From an uncultured Rhodobacterales bacterium (GTDB lineage: Bacteria > Pseudomonadota > Alphaproteobacteria > Rhodobacterales > Rhodobacteraceae), in the NCBI GenBank assembly GCA_964448765.1, contig CAYUXM010000001.1, positions 1 to 63,651 of the forward strand: a stretch of 63,651 nt of DNA, written 5' to 3'. Shown piece by piece: positions 6,798-59,274 of this stretch; the stretch's first letter is position 1, and each line of letters starts with the position of its first letter. The notes under the pieces were generated by a model. That model did not search any database. It was not told where the DNA came from and saw only the letters and a list, made by a program, of their open reading frames with translations. A program made the position numbers and the translations under genes.

Positions 6798-9700
6798 ATG
6801 CCGAAGAGAACCGACATCCGGTCGATCATGATCATCGGAGCCGGTCCCATCGTCATCGGCCAGGCCTGCGAATTCGACTATTCCGGCGCGCAGGCCTGCA
6901 AGGCGCTCAGGGAAGAGGGCTACCGGGTGATCCTGGTGAACTCCAACCCCGCGACGATCATGACCGATCCGGGGCTGGCCGACGCCACCTATATCGAGCC
7001 GATCGATCCCGGGATCGTGGCGAAGATCATCGAAAAGGAGCGGCCCGACGCGCTGTTGCCGACGATGGGCGGGCAGACCGGGCTCAACACCGCGCTGGCG
7101 CTGGCCGACATGGGGGTTCTGCACAGGTACGGGGTGGAGCTGATCGGCGCCAACCGCGCCGCGATCGAGATGGCCGAGGACCGCAAGCTGTTTCGCGAGG
7201 CGATGGACCGGATCGGGCTGGAAAACCCGCGCGCCACCATCGTTTCCGCGCCGAAGCTGGCCAGCGGCAAGTACGACATCAAGGAAGGCGTTCGGCTTGC
7301 GATGGCCGCGCTGGACGAGGTCGGCCTGCCGGCGATCATCCGCCCGGCCTTCACGCTCGGCGGCACCGGCGGCGGCATCGCCTACAACCGCGACGACTAC
7401 GAGGCGATCGTCAAGGGCGGGCTGGAGGCCAGCCCGGTCGCGCAGGTGCTGATCGACGAAAGCCTGCTGGGCTGGAAGGAATACGAGATGGAGGTGGTCC
7501 GCGACCGCGCGGACAACGCGATCATCATCTGCTCGATCGAGAACGTCGATCCGATGGGCGTGCATACCGGCGATTCGATCACCGTCGCCCCGGCGCTGAC
7601 GCTGACCGACAAGGAATACCAGCGGATGCGCAACGGCTCCATCGCCGTGCTGCGCGAAATCGGGGTGGAGACCGGCGGTTCGAACGTGCAATGGGCGATC
7701 AACCCCGCCGACGGCCGGATGGTGGTGATCGAGATGAACCCGCGGGTCTCTCGTTCCTCGGCGCTGGCCTCGAAGGCCACGGGGTTCCCGATCGCCAAGA
7801 TCGCCGCGAAGCTGGCGGTGGGCTACACGCTCGACGAGCTGGACAACGACATCACCAAGGTCACGCCGGCCTCGTTCGAACCCACCATCGACTATGTCGT
7901 GACGAAGATCCCGCGCTTCGCCTTCGAGAAGTTCCCGGGATCGAAGCCGGAACTCACCACCGCGATGAAATCGGTGGGCGAGGTCATGGCGATCGGCCGC
8001 ACGATCCATGAATCGCTGCAAAAGGCGCTGGCCGGGCTGGAAACCGGGCTGAGCGGCTTCGACGAGATCGAGATCGCCGGCGCCCCGGACAAGGCCGCCG
8101 TGGTCAAGGCGCTGTCGGCGCGCACGCCGGACCGGATGCGGCTGATCGCGCAGGCGATGCGGTACGGGCTGGGCGATGACGAGATCTGCGCGGCCACCGA
8201 CTTCGACGCCTGGTTCGTCGCCCGGATCCGCGAGATCGTCGAGGCCGAGGAACAGGTGCGCCGCGACGGGCTGCCGCTGGACGCCGCCGGGCTCCGGGCG
8301 CTGAAGATGATGGGCTTCACCGATGCCCGGCTGGCCGCGCTGACCGGCCGCGACGAGGGCCAGGTGCGCCGCGCGCGCCGCAACCTCGGCGTCCGCGCCG
8401 TGTTCAAGCGGATCGACACCTGCGCGGCCGAGTTCGAGGCGCAGACGCCCTACATGTATTCCACCTACGAGGTTCCCGCGATGGACGAGGTGGAATGCGA
8501 GGCGCGGCCCTCGGACCGCAAGAAGGTCGTCATCCTCGGCGGCGGGCCGAACCGGATCGGGCAGGGGATCGAGTTCGACTACTGCTGCTGTCACGCCTGT
8601 TTCGCGCTGACCGACGCGGGCTACGAGACGATCATGATCAACTGCAACCCCGAGACCGTGTCGACCGACTACGACACCTCGGACCGTCTGTATTTCGAAC
8701 CGCTGACGCTGGAACACGTGCTGGAGATCCTGCGGGTGGAACAGGAGGCGGGCACGCTGCACGGCGTGATCGTGCAGTTCGGCGGCCAGACGCCGCTGAA
8801 GCTGGCCAATGCGCTTTACGACGAGGGGATCCCGATCCTCGGCACCACGCCCGACGCGATCGACCTGGCCGAGGATCGCGAGCGGTTCCAGAAGCTGCTG
8901 AACGATCTGGGCCTGAAACAGCCGGTGAACGGCATCGCCGCCTCCGACGAACAGGCCTTCGCCATCGCCGAGCGGGTCGGCTTCCCGCTGGTGATCCGGC
9001 CCTCCTACGTGCTTGGCGGCCGCGCGATGGAGATCGTGCGCGACATGGACGGGCTCAGGCGCTACATCACCCATGCGGTCGATGTCTCGGGCAGGAACCC
9101 GGTGCTGCTTGACAGCTATCTTTCCGGCGCGATCGAGGTCGATGTCGATGCTCTGTCGGACGGCGAGACGGTGCATGTCGCCGGGATCATGGAACATATC
9201 GAGGAGGCCGGGGTGCATTCGGGCGACAGCGCCTGCTGCCTGCCGCCGCATACGCTGCCCGCCGGGGTCGTCTCCGAGATCAAGCGCCAGACCGCCGCGC
9301 TGGCCCGCGCGCTGAACGTCGTGGGGCTGATGAACGTGCAATACGCGGTCAAGGGCGGCGAGATCTTCGTGCTCGAGGTCAATCCGCGGGCCTCGCGCAC
9401 CGTGCCCTTCGTCGCCAAGGCCACCGACAGCGCGATCGCCTCGATCGCCGCGCGGCTGATGGCCGGCGAGCCGATGGCGGCCTTCCCGATGCGGCCGGCC
9501 TATCCCGATGGCGTCGGCCCCGACACGCCCCTGCCCTTCGCCGATCCGCTGACGCTGGCCGATCCCGACATGCCGTGGTTTTCGGTCAAGGAGGCGGTGA
9601 TGCCGTTTGCCCGCTTCCCCGGCGTCGACACGATCCTCGGCCCCGAGATGCGGTCGACCGGCGAGGTGATGGGCTGGGACCGGACCTTCGCGCTGGCGTT

Positions 9701-10130
9701 TCTCAAGGCGCAGATCGGCGCCGGCACCCATCTGCCCGAGGCCGGCACCGTCTTCATCTCGATCCGCGACGCCGACAAGACCGCCGACATGGCCGGGGCC
9801 GCGCGCGGGCTGGTCGAGATGGGCTTCACCATCGTCGCGACCCGCGGCACCGCGGCCTTCCTGGCCGGGAAGGGGGTTGCGGCCGAGGTCGTCAACAAGG
9901 TCTACGAGGGCCGGCCCGACATCGTCGACCGGCTCAAGGACGGCGGCATCGCGCTGGTGATGAACACCACCGAGGGCGCGCAGGCGGTGGCCGACAGCCG
10001 CGACATCCGCGCCGTCGCGCTTTACGACAAGATCCCGTATTTCACCACCGCCGCCGCCAGTATCGCCGCGGTCGCCGCGATGCAGGCCCGCAGCGAGGGC
10101 GAGATCGGGGTGCGCAGCCTGCAGAACTGA
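6798..10130 (+). CDS. carB: Carbamoyl-phosphate synthase large subunit
   Basis: 1110 aa. [42 protein letters not shown], with duplicated ATP-grasp halves. Confidence 0.97.
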
Positions 10131-53292: not shown

Positions 53293-54525
53293 ATGGCCGA
53301 GGATCTGGTGAACAGCTTCATGACCGGGCCGGACGAGAACGGCCGTTTCGGCATCTTCGGCGGGCGCTTCGTGTCGGAAACGCTGATGCCGCTGATCCTC
53401 GACCTCGAGGCGGAATACGAGAAGGCCAAGACCGACGCGGGCTTCTGGGCCGAGATGGACGATCTGTGGAAGCACTATGTCGGCCGGCCCAGCCCGCTCT
53501 ACTTCGCGCCGCGGCTGACCGAGCATCTGGGCGGCGCCAAGGTCTACATGAAGCGCGACGAGCTGAACCACACCGGCGCGCACAAGATCAACAACGTGCT
53601 GGGCCAGATCCTGCTGGCCCGCCGGATGGGCAAGGAACGGATCATCGCCGAAACCGGCGCCGGCCAGCATGGGGTGGCCACCGCGACCGTCTGCGCCAAG
53701 TTCGGGCTGAAATGCGTGGTCTACATGGGCGCGCATGATGTCGAACGGCAGGCGCCGAACGTGTTCCGCATGCGGCTTCTGGGCGCCGAGGTGGTGCCGG
53801 TGACCTCCGGCCGCGGCACGCTGAAGGACGCGATGAACGACGCGCTGCGCGACTGGGTGACCAATGTGCGCGACACGTTCTACTGCATCGGCACCGTCGC
53901 GGGCCCGCATCCCTACCCGGCGATGGTGCGCGATTTCCAGTCCATCATCGGCAAGGAAGTGCGCTGGCAACTGGCCGAGCAGGAGGGCGAGGGCCGGCTG
54001 CCCGACACCGTGATCGCCGCGATCGGCGGCGGATCGAACGCGATGGGGCTGTTCTACCCGTTCCTCGACGATCCGTCCGTGGGAATCATCGGGGTGGAGG
54101 CCGGCGGCAAGGGTGTGGATGACCGGATGGAGCATTGCGCCAGCCTCACCGGCGGACGGCCCGGCGTTCTGCACGGCAACCGCACCTACCTGTTGCAGGA
54201 CGAGGACGGCCAGATCCTCGAAGGCTTCTCGATCTCCGCCGGGCTCGACTATCCGGGCATCGGGCCGGAGCATTCCTGGCTGCACGACACCGGCCGCGCG
54301 CAATACGTGTCGATCACCGATGACGAGGCGCTGGAGGCGTTCCAGCTGAGTTGCAGGCTGGAGGGCATCATCCCGGCGCTGGAGCCCAGCCATGCGCTGG
54401 CCCATGTGACGAAGATCGCCCCGGACCTGCCGAAGGACCATATCATCGTCATGAACATGTGCGGCCGCGGCGACAAGGATATCTTCACGGTCGCCCGGCA
54501 CCTCGGCTTCGACATGGGCGGCTGA
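53293..54525 (+). CDS. trpB: Tryptophan synthase beta chain
   Basis: [17 protein letters not shown]...[15 protein letters not shown]...GGGSNAMG. Confidence 0.97.
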
Positions 54526-54540
54526 GCGCCGGTTTCCGGG

Positions 54541-54581
54541 CCATAAACCCCGGTTTATGGGCAGGGTCCGATGGTTTATGG
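54541..54581. promoter_or_regulatory. GTTTATGG motif cluster: perfect inverted repeat plus a third direct copy
   Basis: CCATAAAC-CCCG-GTTTATGG (54541-54560), then 12 nt, then GGTTTATGG (54573-54581). It is AT-rich relative to its surroundings and lies between the trpB stop and the first PepSY-like gene. Confidence 0.4.
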
Positions 54582-54698
54582 ACCGCCGCCTAACCCTGGG
54601 GTCAATGGACCGGAGCGGGTCGGCGGCGTCCCTTTGCGGCGTCCGGCACCACCAAGACGCGGTGGCGGACCTGTGTATGCAAAGGAAAGGACAGATCC

Positions 54699-55535
54699 AT
54701 GACCCCCCGTATCTTCCAGCTTTCGGCGGTTGCCGCCCTTCTCGGCTCCGCCGCGCTGGCCGGCCCGTTCGAGGACCGGATCGTGGAGAACCTGCAAGAC
54801 CTCGGTTACGACTATATCGAGGTGAAGACCGGCCCGAGCCAGGTGAAGGCCGAGGCCGTGCGCGGCGCCCGCAAGCTCGAGGTCGTCTACGACCGCTCGA
54901 CCGGCCGGATCATCAGGCGCGAGGAGGAACGCGCGGGGGCCGAGTATCGCGGCCGCACCGGCGTGGAATTCGATGTCGAGAGCGACGACTTCCTCGACGA
55001 CGTGCCGCGGGCATCCAGCGCCCCGTCGGGGTCTGTGGCCGGTGCGCCGGGCGCGTTCGAAAGCCAGATCGTGGACGACCTGCAGGGCATGGGCTACGAG
55101 TATATCGAGATCGAGACCGGCCCGGGCCAGGTGAAGGCCGAGGCCGTGCGCGGCGACCGCAAGCTCGAACTGGTGTTCGACCGGGCCACCGGCCGGGTGA
55201 TCAAGCGCGAGGAGGAACGCGCGGAGGCCGAGTATCTGGGCCGCACCGGTGTCGAGTTCGATACCGACGACGAGGATTTTCTCGATGACGACGACCGCGA
55301 TGACGACGATGATCGCTACGATGACGACGATCGCGACGATGATCGCGACGATGACGACGATCGTGACGACGACCGGGATGACGATCGCGACGATGATCGC
55401 GATGATGACCGGGACGACGATCGCGACGACGACGACGATGATGATGACCGCGATGACGACCGCGACGACGACGATGACGATGACCGCGATGACGACCGTG
55501 ACGACGACGATGACGACGACGACGACGATGACTGA
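54699..55535 (+). CDS. Secreted protein with two tandem PepSY-like modules and an Asp/Arg-only C-terminal tail
   Basis: Signal peptide MTPRIFQLSAVAALLGSAALAG. Two 80-aa modules (GPFEDRIVENLQDLGYDYIEVKTGPSQVKAEAVRGARKLEVVYDRSTGRII... and GAFESQIVDDLQGMGYEYIEIETGPGQVKAEAVRGDRKLELVFDRATGRVI...). The 83-residue tail contains only D, R and one Y. AAGGAAAGGA RBS. Confidence 0.8.
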   Translation: MTPRIFQLSAVAALLGSAALAGPFEDRIVENLQDLGYDYIEVKTGPSQVKAEAVRGARKLEVVYDRSTGRIIRREEERAGAEYRGRTGVEFDVESDDFLDDVPRASSAPSGSVAGAPGAFESQIVDDLQGMGYEYIEIETGPGQVKAEAVRGDRKLELVFDRATGRVIKREEERAEAEYLGRTGVEFDTDDEDFLDDDDRDDDDDRYDDDDRDDDRDDDDDRDDDRDDDRDDDRDDDRDDDRDDDDDDDDRDDDRDDDDDDDRDDDRDDDDDDDDDDD

Positions 55536-55570
55536 GGGCAGCCATGCCCTTGTCGGCCCGCTGGCCGTGA

Positions 55571-55594
55571 CCCCGCCGCAGGATTGCGGCGGGG
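55571..55594 (+). other. Perfect 10-bp stem / 4-nt loop hairpin between the two PepSY-like genes
   Basis: CCCCGCCGCA-GGAT-TGCGGCGGGG, 36 nt after the stop at 55535 and 20 nt before the next ATG. No U-tract follows. Confidence 0.5.
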
Positions 55595-55613
55595 CTTGCC
55601 CCGGAGGACTGTC

Positions 55614-56171
55614 ATGACCGCCCGCCGCAGCCTGCTGTTCGGCCTGGCCGCGCTCGTCGCCCTGCCCGGCGCGGCCCTTGCGCAGGACCGCGGGATCCAG
55701 GACCGGATCATCGAGGCGCTGAAGGATCAGGGCTACGCGCGGATCCAGATCGGCCGCACCTTCCTCGGCCGTGGCCGGATCGAGGCCGAAGGCCCGCCCG
55801 GCGAGCGCGAGATCATCTTCAACCCGCGCACCGGCGAGATCCTGCGCGACGTCTGGCGCGACGGCGGCGACGGCGGCGGCGGGCGCGACGAGGACCGGGT
55901 GCTCGACCGCGATGATTACGACGAGGAGGACGACCGGGACGACGATGACCGGGACGATGCTGACGACGACGACCGCGATGATCGCGACGATGATCGCGAC
56001 GACGACAGGGATGACGACCGCGACGATGACGACCGCGACGACGATGACGACCGCGATGACGATGATCGCGATGACGACGATGATCGCGACGACGACCGCG
56101 ACGACGACGACCGGGATGACGACGACCGGGATGACGATCGCGACGACGATGACGACGATGACGATGACTGA
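55614..56171 (+). CDS. Secreted protein with a single PepSY-like module and an Asp/Arg-rich tail (paralog)
   Basis: Signal peptide MTARRSLLFGLAALVALPGAALAQ. Module is IIEALKDQGYARIQIGRTFLGRGRIEAEGPPGEREIIFNPRTGEILRD. Tail is DDRDDDDRDDADDDDRDDRDDDRDDD...DDDDDDDDD. GGAGGA RBS. Confidence 0.8.
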   Translation: MTARRSLLFGLAALVALPGAALAQDRGIQDRIIEALKDQGYARIQIGRTFLGRGRIEAEGPPGEREIIFNPRTGEILRDVWRDGGDGGGGRDEDRVLDRDDYDEEDDRDDDDRDDADDDDRDDRDDDRDDDRDDDRDDDDRDDDDDRDDDDRDDDDDRDDDRDDDDRDDDDRDDDRDDDDDDDDD

Positions 56172-56230
56172 ACCGGGCCGAGACACCGACGGCGCCGATC
56201 CGTCATTCGGGCCATGCAGTTAGCGGGCGC

Positions 56231-56779
56231 GTGAAGGGGTCCGCCACGATCACGCTGATCCTTGTCGTGCAGGCGGCCTGCGCGGTGTTCTTCGTCTATG
56301 ACATCCTGTCCAGCGTGATCGGTTTCGGAACCACGCCGATGTCCTGGCAGTTGCGCGAGTTGCTGGAAATCGGCGCGGCGCTGGGCCTCGTGCTGGGCAT
56401 CGTGCTGGGCGCGATGGCGCTCAGGCGCACGATGGAGGCGCGCCGGCGTGCCGAGCGGCAGTTGCGCGCGGCCTCGGCGGCCTTCATGGAGGTGCTGGAG
56501 GAACGGTTCGCGGACTGGGGGCTGACCCCGGCCGAGCGCGACGTGGCGTTGTTCGCGATCAAGGGCATGTCCACCGCCGAGATCGCGCAGTTGCGGGCGA
56601 CCTCGGAAGGCACGGTGAAGGCGCAGACCAACGCGATCTACCGCAAGGCGGGTGTCAGCGGACGGCCGCAGCTGCTGTCGCTGTTCATCGACGACCTGAT
56701 GCAGCCCGGCCCCGTGCCCGATGCCGGCGGCCCGGCAGCGACGCCGGGCGCAGCGCCGGTGACAAGCCGCCGGGCCTGA
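56231..56779 (+). CDS. Membrane-anchored LuxR/GerE-type HTH transcriptional regulator
   Basis: Two N-terminal TM helices (ITLILVVQAACAVFFVYDIL, LLEIGAALGLVLGIVLGAMAL). C-terminal domain is LTPAERDVALFAIKGMSTAEIAQLRATSEGTVKAQTNAIYRKAGV. GTG start. Confidence 0.8.
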   Translation: MKGSATITLILVVQAACAVFFVYDILSSVIGFGTTPMSWQLRELLEIGAALGLVLGIVLGAMALRRTMEARRRAERQLRAASAAFMEVLEERFADWGLTPAERDVALFAIKGMSTAEIAQLRATSEGTVKAQTNAIYRKAGVSGRPQLLSLFIDDLMQPGPVPDAGGPAATPGAAPVTSRRA

Positions 56780-56781
56780 CC

Positions 56782-57156
56782 TCAGCTCGACACCGCCTGG
56801 GTGTGCAGCACCTCGAAGGGCACGATGTCCAGCGCGCCCCGATGCGTGGCCTCCAGCACCACGCGCGGCGCGCAGCCTTCCTCGTGCGCCTGCAGGAACC
56901 GCGCCGCGCACAGGCACCAGCGGTCGCCGGGCCGCAGGCCGGGGAACTGGAACTCCGGCCGCGGTGTCGACAGGTCGTTGCCGACGTATTTCGAGAACGC
57001 AAGGAACTCCGCCGTCATGATCGCGCAGACGGTGTGGCTGCCGTGATCCTCCGCGCAGGTGTTGCAATGCCCGTCCCGGAAGAAACCGGTCCTCGGTTCC
57101 GCCGAACAGGGTTCCAGCGGGGTGCCGAGAACGTTGACCGCCGGGTCCATCTGCAT
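56782..57156 (-). CDS. DUF2237 family protein
   Basis: NVLGTPLEPCS..PRTGFFRDGHCNTCAEDHGSHTVCA.MT.EFL. The ATG overlaps the upstream stop by 1 nt (TGATG). Confidence 0.8.
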   Translation of the reverse strand: MQMDPAVNVLGTPLEPCSAEPRTGFFRDGHCNTCAEDHGSHTVCAIMTAEFLAFSKYVGNDLSTPRPEFQFPGLRPGDRWCLCAARFLQAHEEGCAPRVVLEATHRGALDIVPFEVLHTQAVSS

Positions 57157-57398
57157 CACAGCCGTCCGTGTGTGCCGTCGCATAGCGGCGCGCGGGCGGA
57201 ATGCTTGCAGCCGCAGAAGAACAGCTTGCCGGTCTTCTCCGCCTGATATTTCACGGGGTTGAACGATGTGCCCTTGTGCGATCCGTCGCAGAACGGCTGG
57301 TTGCCGGAGCGCCCGCAGGCGCACCAGAAATAGGTCTTGCCCTCCGTCACCTCGACCGGGAAGGGCGCGTCTTGCGCGATTGTCGGTTTGTCTGTCAT
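57156..57398 (-). CDS. CDGSH-type iron-sulfur domain protein (two CDGSH motifs)
   Basis: CACGRSGNQPFCDGSH and CGCKHSARAPLCDGTH. GGGAGGA RBS. Confidence 0.9.
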   Translation of the reverse strand: MTDKPTIAQDAPFPVEVTEGKTYFWCACGRSGNQPFCDGSHKGTSFNPVKYQAEKTGKLFFCGCKHSARAPLCDGTHGRL

Positions 57399-57415
57399 GC
57401 CGTCCTCCCTGCGTC

Positions 57416-58492
57416 TCAGGGTAGGGTGAGATCGGCCGCGGGCAAGGGCGGCACTGTCCATTTCACGTGACGGCCGTGAAAGTCCGTGCGTCCCAGCGAC
57501 GTGACAGTTCCGCCGGGCCAGGTCGTGAGGGTCAGGGCCGCGCTGCCGGGGGTTGAATCGGCTTCCATCGCCAGACGGGCGAGCGGCGCGGCCCGTGTCG
57601 CCCGCGCGCCGGCGGCGTTCAGCGCGGCGGCGCAGTGCGTCCGGGTCGCCCTTGGGAAATACTGCCAGGCCACGGTGTGACAGACCAGGTGCAGGCGCCC
57701 CGGCATCGGCTCGGCCAGCCGCGCCTCCAGCCAGTCGGCGGCATCGCCGCGGTCGGGCCGGAGGCCAAGCCGCGCGGCCTCGGCCGCCGCGCGCCGCGTC
57801 CGGTCGAGCCGCGCGGGCTGGTCGGGCCAGAGAAAGGCCAGCAGCCGCGGCAGGTCGACGGCCGGATCGAGCGGGTTCAGGTCCACCCCGGCGCGGCCGG
57901 CGATCCGGGGGGTGGCGACGGGCGGCAGTGGTCCTTCCCAGCCCGGCGCGAGGCTTAGGACGGCATCGGCCGGGCCAAGGCGGCGACCGGGCAGGTCCAG
58001 CGCGTAGCGATCCCAGATCAGGTTGAGCCCGGCGCTGGCGCCAAGCTCCGACAACACCAGCGGCAGGCCGAACCGCGCCGCCAGCCAGTGCCCCGCGGCG
58101 ATCAGGACGGCGGAGCGCCCGGTTTCGTTGGTTTGCGGCGCGTGGTCGAGCCAGCGGTCGATCCGGGTGGCGTGGCGCCGCATCGCGCCGGCCAGCGCCT
58201 GCCAGAGCGCCGCGTCGTCGATCGCGTCGCGATCGGCATAGGCGCGGGCGAGCGCCGGGTCTGCGCCGTCCAGCGCCAGCGCATGCAGCGCCCCGGCCAG
58301 CCGCAGCGGCACCGCGTCGCCGGTGGCGGTGATGTCGCCGGGCCAGGCCAGCAGGCGGTCGGCCAGCGGCAGGTCGGCGGTCAGCCGATCCCCGATCAGG
58401 CGCAGCAGCCTTTCCATGAAGGGCGAGCCCAGCCGCCCGCAGGCCCGGGCCTGTGCCGCGCAGGCCGCGGCGAAGCGGCCCGCGCCGGTCAC
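57416..58492 (-). CDS. DUF2332 family protein
   Basis: [21 protein letters not shown]...[15 protein letters not shown]...FLWPDQ..R. The GTG at 58492 overlaps the pth stop (GTGA). Confidence 0.7.
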
Positions 58493-59274
58493 CGGAACCG
58501 GTCCACCAGCCGTTGCAACGGGCTGCGCGGTTCGGCCGCCGGGTCCGGCTTCGTGGCGGGCGCCGGATCGGCCTTGCCCGCGCCATCACTGTCCGCGTCG
58601 GCCGACGTCGCGCCGCCCTGTTCCGCGCCCGTCTTGCCCGTGCCCGTCTTGCCCGTGCCCGTCTTGCGCGTGCCCGTCTTGCCCGTTCCGGTCGAGGACC
58701 GCGGCGGCGCCGTCCTCAGCGCCACGGCATTGAGAAACTTCGCCGGATCGCCCGCGGCCAGTGCCGGGGCGCCATCGGAAATCCCGCGCAGCAGGTCGTC
58801 GAGCCAGTCGGCATCGGCCTTCGCGAAATCCGACAGCACGTAGCCCGATACCCGGTCCTTGTGGCCCGGATGGCCGATCCCCAGCCGGACCCGCGCATAG
58901 GCATCGGTGCCAAGGTGCTGGTGGATCGAGCGCAGCCCGTTGTGCCCGGCATGGCCGCCGCCCTGCTTTTGGCGCAGCTTGCCCGGCGCGAGGTCCAGCT
59001 CGTCATGGAACACCGTGACATCGGCGGGCGTCAGCTTGAAGAACCGCAGCGCCTTGCCGACCGACTGGCCCGAGAGGTTCATGAAGGTCTGCGGCTTGAG
59101 CAGGATCACCTTCTCGCCGCCGAGGTTGCCCTCGCTCACCGCGGCCTGGAATTTCGACCGCCAGGGCGAAAAGCCGTGATCCGCCGCGATCCGGTCGAGC
59201 GCCATGAAGCCGATGTTGTGCCGGTTCTGCGCGTATTTCGCGCCCGGGTTGCCAAGGCCCACGAAAAGCCGCAT
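58489..59274 (-). CDS. pth: Peptidyl-tRNA hydrolase with a roughly 70-aa low-complexity C-terminal extension
   Basis: [27 protein letters not shown]...[22 protein letters not shown]. Extension is [26 protein letters not shown]... Confidence 0.93.
58627..58686 (-). repeat. Four tandem 15-bp repeats inside the pth 3' extension
   Basis: Plus-strand unit GCCCGTCTTGCCCGT x4 (one unit has C>G). Encodes (TGKTG)n on the minus strand. Confidence 0.85.

Follow-up and report, generated by a model that had tools for sequence, protein, structure and literature searches.

The Asp/Arg runs that end two adjacent genes in the window (the whole stretch of DNA analysed here, 63,651 nucleotides from an uncultured Rhodobacterales bacterium) are genuine coding sequence, which gives two exported PepSY proteins a disordered C-terminal tail of poly-Asp/Arg, and a PepSY pair with such tails is conserved across the Rhodobacteraceae. 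At the nucleotide level, the two tails stand at the scrambled end of a cycle of expansion and divergence, and nothing in them points to a code arranged on purpose against slippage. Probably they are the product of ordinary low-complexity evolution, in which expansion and contraction, synonymous scrambling and a filter on repeat purity are combined with weak codon-pair selection. A plausible-looking anomaly is in this way mainly cleared up: the codon order is random, the tails of relatives are unstable and not protected from slippage, and the richness in GAT is largely the normal Asp usage of the genome.

The gene pair and its conserved cluster

The features on which the analysis is based are listed below by position in the window.

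54699..55535, + strand: gene 1, 278 aa, with a signal peptide, two PepSY_2 modules and an Asp/Arg tail (ORF, Pfam, AlphaFold model)
55284..55535, + strand: tail 1, 83 codons (68 Asp, 14 Arg, 1 Tyr) plus stop, with a DDDR period
55614..56171, + strand: gene 2, encoding a paralogue, 185 aa, with an RR-motif signal peptide, one PepSY-like module and an Asp/Arg tail (ORF, hhalign)
55884..56171, + strand: tail 2 as delimited in the sequence-only reading, 23 GAT and 47 GAC
55929-56168, + strand: nearly pure Asp/Arg core of tail 2, 64 Asp, 15 Arg and 1 Ala
56231..56779, + strand: membrane-anchored LuxR/GerE-type regulator, third gene of the conserved cluster (Pfam GerE)

Protein 1 was matched to Pfam PepSY_2 (PF13670) in two stretches, with 35.7 bits against a cut-off of 24.3, and its AlphaFold model consists of two alpha+beta modules (pLDDT 83-96 per 10-residue block) followed by a tail, residues 196-278, predicted to be without secondary structure (pLDDT 51-59). 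The Pfam search with protein 2 gave no match at E <= 1; its module was aligned to the family profile A1 by hhalign with a probability of 98.9% (E = 1e-17, 72 columns). A PDB sequence search with the proteins gave chance-level matches only, and NCBIfam has no family for either of them. Both are small secreted PepSY proteins, according to signal peptides read from the sequence. The signal of gene 1 is of the ordinary Sec type, and that of gene 2 (55614-55690) reads MTARRSLLFGLAAL, with MTMRRTVVFGLAAL as its counterpart in the congener; the twin-arginine motif in the signal peptide of gene 2 hints at possible Tat export. As to the downstream regulator, a GerE HTH was detected by Pfam (29.6 bits against a cut-off of 23.5) together with hydrophobic N-terminal segments and with neither a receiver nor a kinase domain, the same being the case in 39 of 40 genera. 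The long ORFs of the opposite strand (poly-Ser/Arg and poly-Val/Ile), which had been taken for spurious, are indeed present as by-products of the tract, as are off-frame poly-Thr/Met ORFs over the tracts, and all of them are artefacts.

Conservation was assessed at the level of the family and of the gene order. The family profile matched 113 of 300 genera sampled from the same family, the homologues being from Rhodobacteraceae/Paracoccaceae and carrying the public names 'PepSY domain-containing protein' or 'hypothetical'. In a synteny sample of 40 genera (loci L041-L080, 20 kb each), the order trpB, PepSY-tail, PepSY-tail, membrane LuxR regulator was kept in 38-39, a homologue of the LuxR regulator was encoded directly 3' of the two PepSY genes in 39, and in 29 the regulator was followed by DUF2237 on the opposite strand. 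The same gene order was present in three metagenomic strain contigs (L081-L083). Throughout the family the tails are always Asp-rich and the interspersed residues vary (R, SGRG, H, N, E, G); therefore, it is the acidity that is conserved and not the DDDR pattern. The tails mark a widespread, unstudied Rhodobacteraceae cluster in which a membrane LuxR gene accompanies two PepSY-polyAsp genes. With 56-77% identity across the genera of the synteny sample (L041-L080), the membrane LuxR-type regulator is far better conserved than the PepSY modules, at 33-63%.

A further neighbour, on the opposite strand and 1-2 kb downstream, is pth, the gene for peptidyl-tRNA hydrolase, whose synteny with the two poly-Asp genes is kept (53293-58710; L081-L083). 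Acidic runs promote peptidyl-tRNA drop-off, and Pth clears the product. Its proximity to the poly-Asp genes is probably a coincidence within a conserved region of the core genome.

The closest described counterparts of the pair are small periplasmic PepSY regulators: DbfQ of Vibrio cholerae, which binds the membrane sensor DbfS, and PA2658/PA2659 of Pseudomonas aeruginosa, a two-gene version of the same (PMC12714742). Like the proteins studied here, these are small, Sec-exported PepSY proteins, sometimes in tandem, whose genes adjoin that of a membrane signalling protein; unlike in DbfQRS, no adjacent histidine kinase and response regulator are present here, and the partner is a membrane-anchored LuxR-type HTH protein. 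No acidic tail is described for DbfQ in that paper, in which the words 'acidic' and 'aspartate' occur 0 times, and a full-text literature search found no paper that combines PepSY with 'aspartate-rich'. A disordered, polyanionic tail in the periplasm suggests cation binding, and the tail may thus be a periplasmic polyanion that binds cations and acts with the adjacent membrane regulator. The cluster could serve to sense cations or the condition of the cell envelope.

Codon order, repeats and length change in the tails

The count of about 26 GAT among the 68 Asp codons of tail 1, made by the sequence-only reading, was exact on recount, and the tract is in frame: the Asp codons are 26 GAT and 42 GAC (GAT share 0.382), and the others are 10 CGC, 2 CGG, 2 CGT and 1 TAC. 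For tail 2 (55884-56171), the codon counts given above correspond to a GAT share of 0.329. The loose 12-nt (DDDR) periodicity reported at the same time is also real. In tail 1, a spacing of exactly 4 residues accounts for 8 of the 13 Arg-Arg intervals (permutation P < 5e-5), and the nucleotide self-match peaks at lags 12 and 36. The period is looser in tail 2, where successive Arg residues are 4-5 positions apart (P = 0.01) and the self-match is highest at lags 15 and 33.

Long perfect repeats are nearly absent from both tails, as had been claimed. TRF detected imperfect arrays only, with 61-79% matches, the longest run of one codon is 5 and the longest exact repeats of tails 1 and 2 measure 23 and 22 nt, compared to the 70 and 55 nt that would be found if the same peptides were recoded with a single codon. 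When synonymous codons were shuffled within each tail, the length of the longest repeat and the numbers of recurring 9- to 24-mers came out as observed (all P 0.3-0.7), the counts of adjacent codons fitted independence, and within the DDDR units GAT favoured none of the three Asp positions. Thus, GAT and GAC succeed one another in an order that cannot be told from a random one, and no arrangement tuned against repeats is shown.

Three other accounts were rejected. The even distribution of GAT over the three positions rules out an ancestral DDDR unit with fixed codons, and both tRNA-Asp genes have the anticodon GTC, ruling out that codon mixing shares the load between tRNAs. A contingency (phase-variable) simple-sequence locus was likewise rejected, as there is no pure tract and the indels of relatives are all multiples of 3.

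These indels were detected in the three strain contigs L081-L083, which are around 99.3% identical over 3.2 kb, from trpB to the regulator, and between which three in-frame indels were seen, of 57, 12 and 3 nt, each of them within one of the two tails; the contigs are metagenomic and from separate samples, and metagenome assemblies of repeats can err. In two more sets, of near-identical proteins, the tails likewise differed by indels when compared as protein sequences, and one set had in addition a 5-residue indel in the linker between modules. Length polymorphism is therefore nearly confined to the tract in close relatives, as shown in relatives of this species. When the congener (86% identity) was compared with this genome, tail length and content were both different. 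Tail 1 of this congener (L061, G001:C7, same genus) consists of DDDER units, with an inserted Glu, and has an exact repeat of 35 nt (k18 z = 7.2), so that the content of a tail can change within a genus. The tails of relatives are clearly not identical in length; it was identical lengths, together with a similar genome-wide GAT share, that the sequence-only reading had named as evidence against special constraint or instability. The length polymorphism among orthologous tails for which it had suggested looking, in multiples of 12 nt, was found, but the indels are multiples of 3, and the observed 57, 12 and 3 nt rule out a restriction to multiples of 12.

Repetitiveness was then compared in 52 related tails. 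None was less repetitive than its synonymous shuffle (z < -2), whereas 13-17 exceeded it (z > 2) and contained exact repeats 53-101 nt long. These exact repeats indicate that the tails of the family expand by copying of nucleotide blocks, the copies losing their identity later. In one of the tails (L046, G050:C24, tail ORF ~9380-9983) an exact internal repeat of 101 nt was found, with a GAT share of 0.74 vs. 0.455 in the flanks; this tail is a recent expansion of a GAT-rich unit.

From the sequence, two readings had been offered for the tails, selection of the amino-acid pattern with avoidance of slippage-prone repeats and, as the alternative, a tract that expands and contracts and then diverges. 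It is the alternative that is better supported, by the indels among strains and by the fresh repeats in 13-17 of the 52 tails. In the mechanism that we propose, short blocks would be duplicated or deleted in frame, via replication slippage or unequal recombination, and third-position C/T substitutions would then scramble the copies of a block. Pure (GAC)n stretches would slip and be resized or lost, and synonymously interrupted tracts would persist. Both tails of this genome are old in this sense: their repeats are at chance level, GAT and GAC follow one another at random, and GAT makes up around 0.35 of the Asp codons.

Frequency of GAT against different baselines

The sequence-only reading had described GAT as unusually frequent in the tails, and the answer depends on the baseline. 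The whole genome was used (3.32 Mb, 443 contigs, 70.4% GC), with crude gene calls consisting of 2084 high-GC3 ORFs of at least 150 aa. The GAT share of Asp is 0.29 genome-wide and 0.294 in the other 38 genes of the window. The window does use G/C heavily in third position (mean GC3 0.89), as had been remarked, but Asp is among the least biased amino acids. Compared to the plain genome share of 0.29, the excess of GAT gave p = 0.06 for tail 1, 0.28 for tail 2 and 0.058 for both combined, and a GAT share of at least 0.33 is reached by 35% of the genes in the genome. The genome-wide comparison of Asp codons that had been suggested as a check therefore gives a share roughly similar to that of the tails, although with this simple baseline only.

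The codon that follows has a strong effect. In ordinary genes, the GAT share was 0.15 before an Asp codon (0.09 before GAT and 0.18 before GAC; 2361 Asp-Asp contexts), and in the genome it was 0.30 before CGC and 0.08 before CGG. Other next codons gave values in this genome (G000) as low as 0.006 (AAG), 0.025 (GAG) and 0.05 (TGG), or as high as 0.53 (GCC or CCG) and 0.79 (TTC). Under a codon-pair model, 12.8±3.0 GAT were expected in tail 1 and 26 observed (P < 0.0005), and 12.5±2.9 were expected in tail 2 and 21 observed (P = 0.0025). The same model predicted 374 and 304 repeated 12-mers, compared to 111 and 103 observed. Thus, with GAT at around twice the codon-pair expectation, the tails are far less repetitive than the codon-pair habits of the genome would make them. 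A single-codon model, on the other hand, reproduced the GAT counts of the tails as well as their repeat statistics. GAT is consequently not significantly frequent against the plain genome mean, but it is so against the baseline matched for the following codon.

When a context-adjusted score was calculated per gene (1399 genes, SD of z = 1.22), gene 1 ranked 7th and gene 2 13th, and the 2nd rank was taken by an unrelated TadE-like gene, also with a long Asp tract. This indicates that long Asp tracts escape the codon-pair rule, and that the escape is a property of the type of tract and not of the PepSY gene family. The TadE-like pilus-assembly protein is encoded outside the window (G000 C277:1059-1704, - strand) and ends with NDDDDDRDDDDR followed by 24 Asp, and 9 of the 24 codons of this run are GAT (0.375).

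For the comparison across genera, tails were found by direct detection of D-rich C-termini, and the relatives compared are not independent of one another. Over 33 genera, the GAT share was 0.41 in the tails vs. 0.39 in flanking genes, being higher in the tail in 18 of the 33 (p = 0.34), and the tail share dropped as genomic GC rose. A regression over 30 genera, from which L046 and L071 were excluded for the very high GAT share of their tails, gave a tail share of 0.27 + 0.32 x background, with a slope well below 1. Where GAT is rare in the background the tail was above it in 9 of 12 cases, and where GAT is common the tail was below it in 6 of 8. In six other high-GC genera, for each of which 94-400 kb of background were fetched, the GAT share was 0.10-0.30 in Asp-Asp context and 0.29-0.43 in the tails, so that all six showed an excess, of z = 2.9-7.8 vs. 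the context and z = 1.0-3.1 vs. the plain mean.

Explanations of the codon mixture

The most economical explanation for the doubling of GAT relative to Asp-Asp context would be the purity filter, acting together with weak codon-pair selection in a tract of fast turnover. Relaxed synonymous selection alone could, however, yield the same intermediate composition as this filter, and the excess to be explained is not significant against the simple genome mean nor between tails and flanking genes in the 33 genera. A wider claim, that long poly-Asp tracts of bacteria are held at a GAT share of around 0.35-0.45 despite codon bias and the codon-pair rule, is put forward tentatively and may well prove wrong. 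If true, a ceiling on the purity of trinucleotide repeats would shape synonymous usage, a prokaryotic case of triplet-level selection for sequence stability, and the abundance of PepSY tails would allow this ceiling to be quantified across hundreds of genera. The clean, replicated departure of long Asp tracts from the codon-pair rule could be used as a natural test bed for the limits that repeat purity sets to codon choice in bacteria.

The first alternative is active selection for synonymous heterogeneity, by which GAT and GAC, and CGC, CGG and CGT, would be kept mixed so as to avoid slippage-prone perfect repeats. In favour of it are the GAT share, around double the value expected from context in this genome as in six other genera, the repeated 12-mers, 3-4 times fewer than the codon-pair model predicts, and the attraction of tail GAT towards around 0.4 at any background, expressed in the slope of 0.32. 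There is also a precedent in codon choice against mononucleotide repeats (Ackermann and Chao, 2006; PMC1378130), where, as here, synonymous choice cuts slippage-prone repeats below expectation. In that work, the bias concerned mononucleotide runs and was attributed to selection, whereas the repeats here are trinucleotide, their order is random and slippage persists in relatives. Selection of this kind also predicts over-dispersed interruptions, and the codon order was no more dispersed than random; no tail among the 52 fell below its shuffle in repetitiveness, and fresh exact repeats are present in 25-33%. It predicts protection from slippage too, but the indels among strains show that slippage is not being prevented, and the residues interspersed in the tails (R, SGRG, H, N, E) are not conserved across the family, which speaks against selection of one specific pattern. 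The reading preferred from the sequence, in which the amino-acid pattern is selected and repeats are avoided, is thus left with the doubled GAT on its side and the random codon order against it, and we regard active selection as unlikely.

It is distinctly unlikely that the tails are nothing special, that is, that they mirror ordinary genomic Asp usage and the excess is an artefact of the baseline. Such a reading is consistent with the closeness of the genome share (0.29) to that of the tails (0.33-0.38; p = 0.06 and 0.28), with the success of the single-codon model and with the lack of difference between family tails and flanking genes. Against it, the dependence on the next codon is strong and was measured well, over 2361 Asp-Asp contexts, the poly-Asp genes take the 2nd, 7th and 13th places among 1399 under an empirical null (SD 1.22), and the excess was replicated in six other genera. 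Finally, a placement of GAT that modulates the elongation of an acidic, ribosome-destabilising nascent chain is hardly credible, for although consecutive acidic residues can abort translation through intrinsic ribosome destabilisation (reviewed in PMC12340396) and the tails are extreme acidic runs, a single tRNA-Asp species (GTC) reads both codons, GAT has no positional pattern and the reported effect depends on the peptide and not on the codon.

Under the preferred explanation, of expansion, contraction and scrambling, the tails resemble codon-heterogeneous homopeptide tracts and interrupted trinucleotide repeats, in which an expansion-prone run is likewise encoded by mixed synonymous codons, with fresh copies pure and older ones scrambled. 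The contrast of homopeptide and homocodon was surveyed by Wang and Harrison (2021; PMC8113271). Their survey covered fungi, whereas the case presented here is a bacterial poly-Asp/Arg tail that departs from a strong genomic codon-pair rule. Shuffles and position counts agree in that the synonymous codons of the tails are mixed without order, as fits a length-variable, codon-heterogeneous homopeptide tract. The Ser-Asp region of the staphylococcal Clf/Sdr proteins, for which we know of no homology to the PepSY tails, is also a long acidic low-complexity region with degenerate codon repeats and a length that varies among strains; it differs from the tails in being a dipeptide repeat, in belonging to Gram-positive wall-anchored adhesins and in having dedicated glycosylation.
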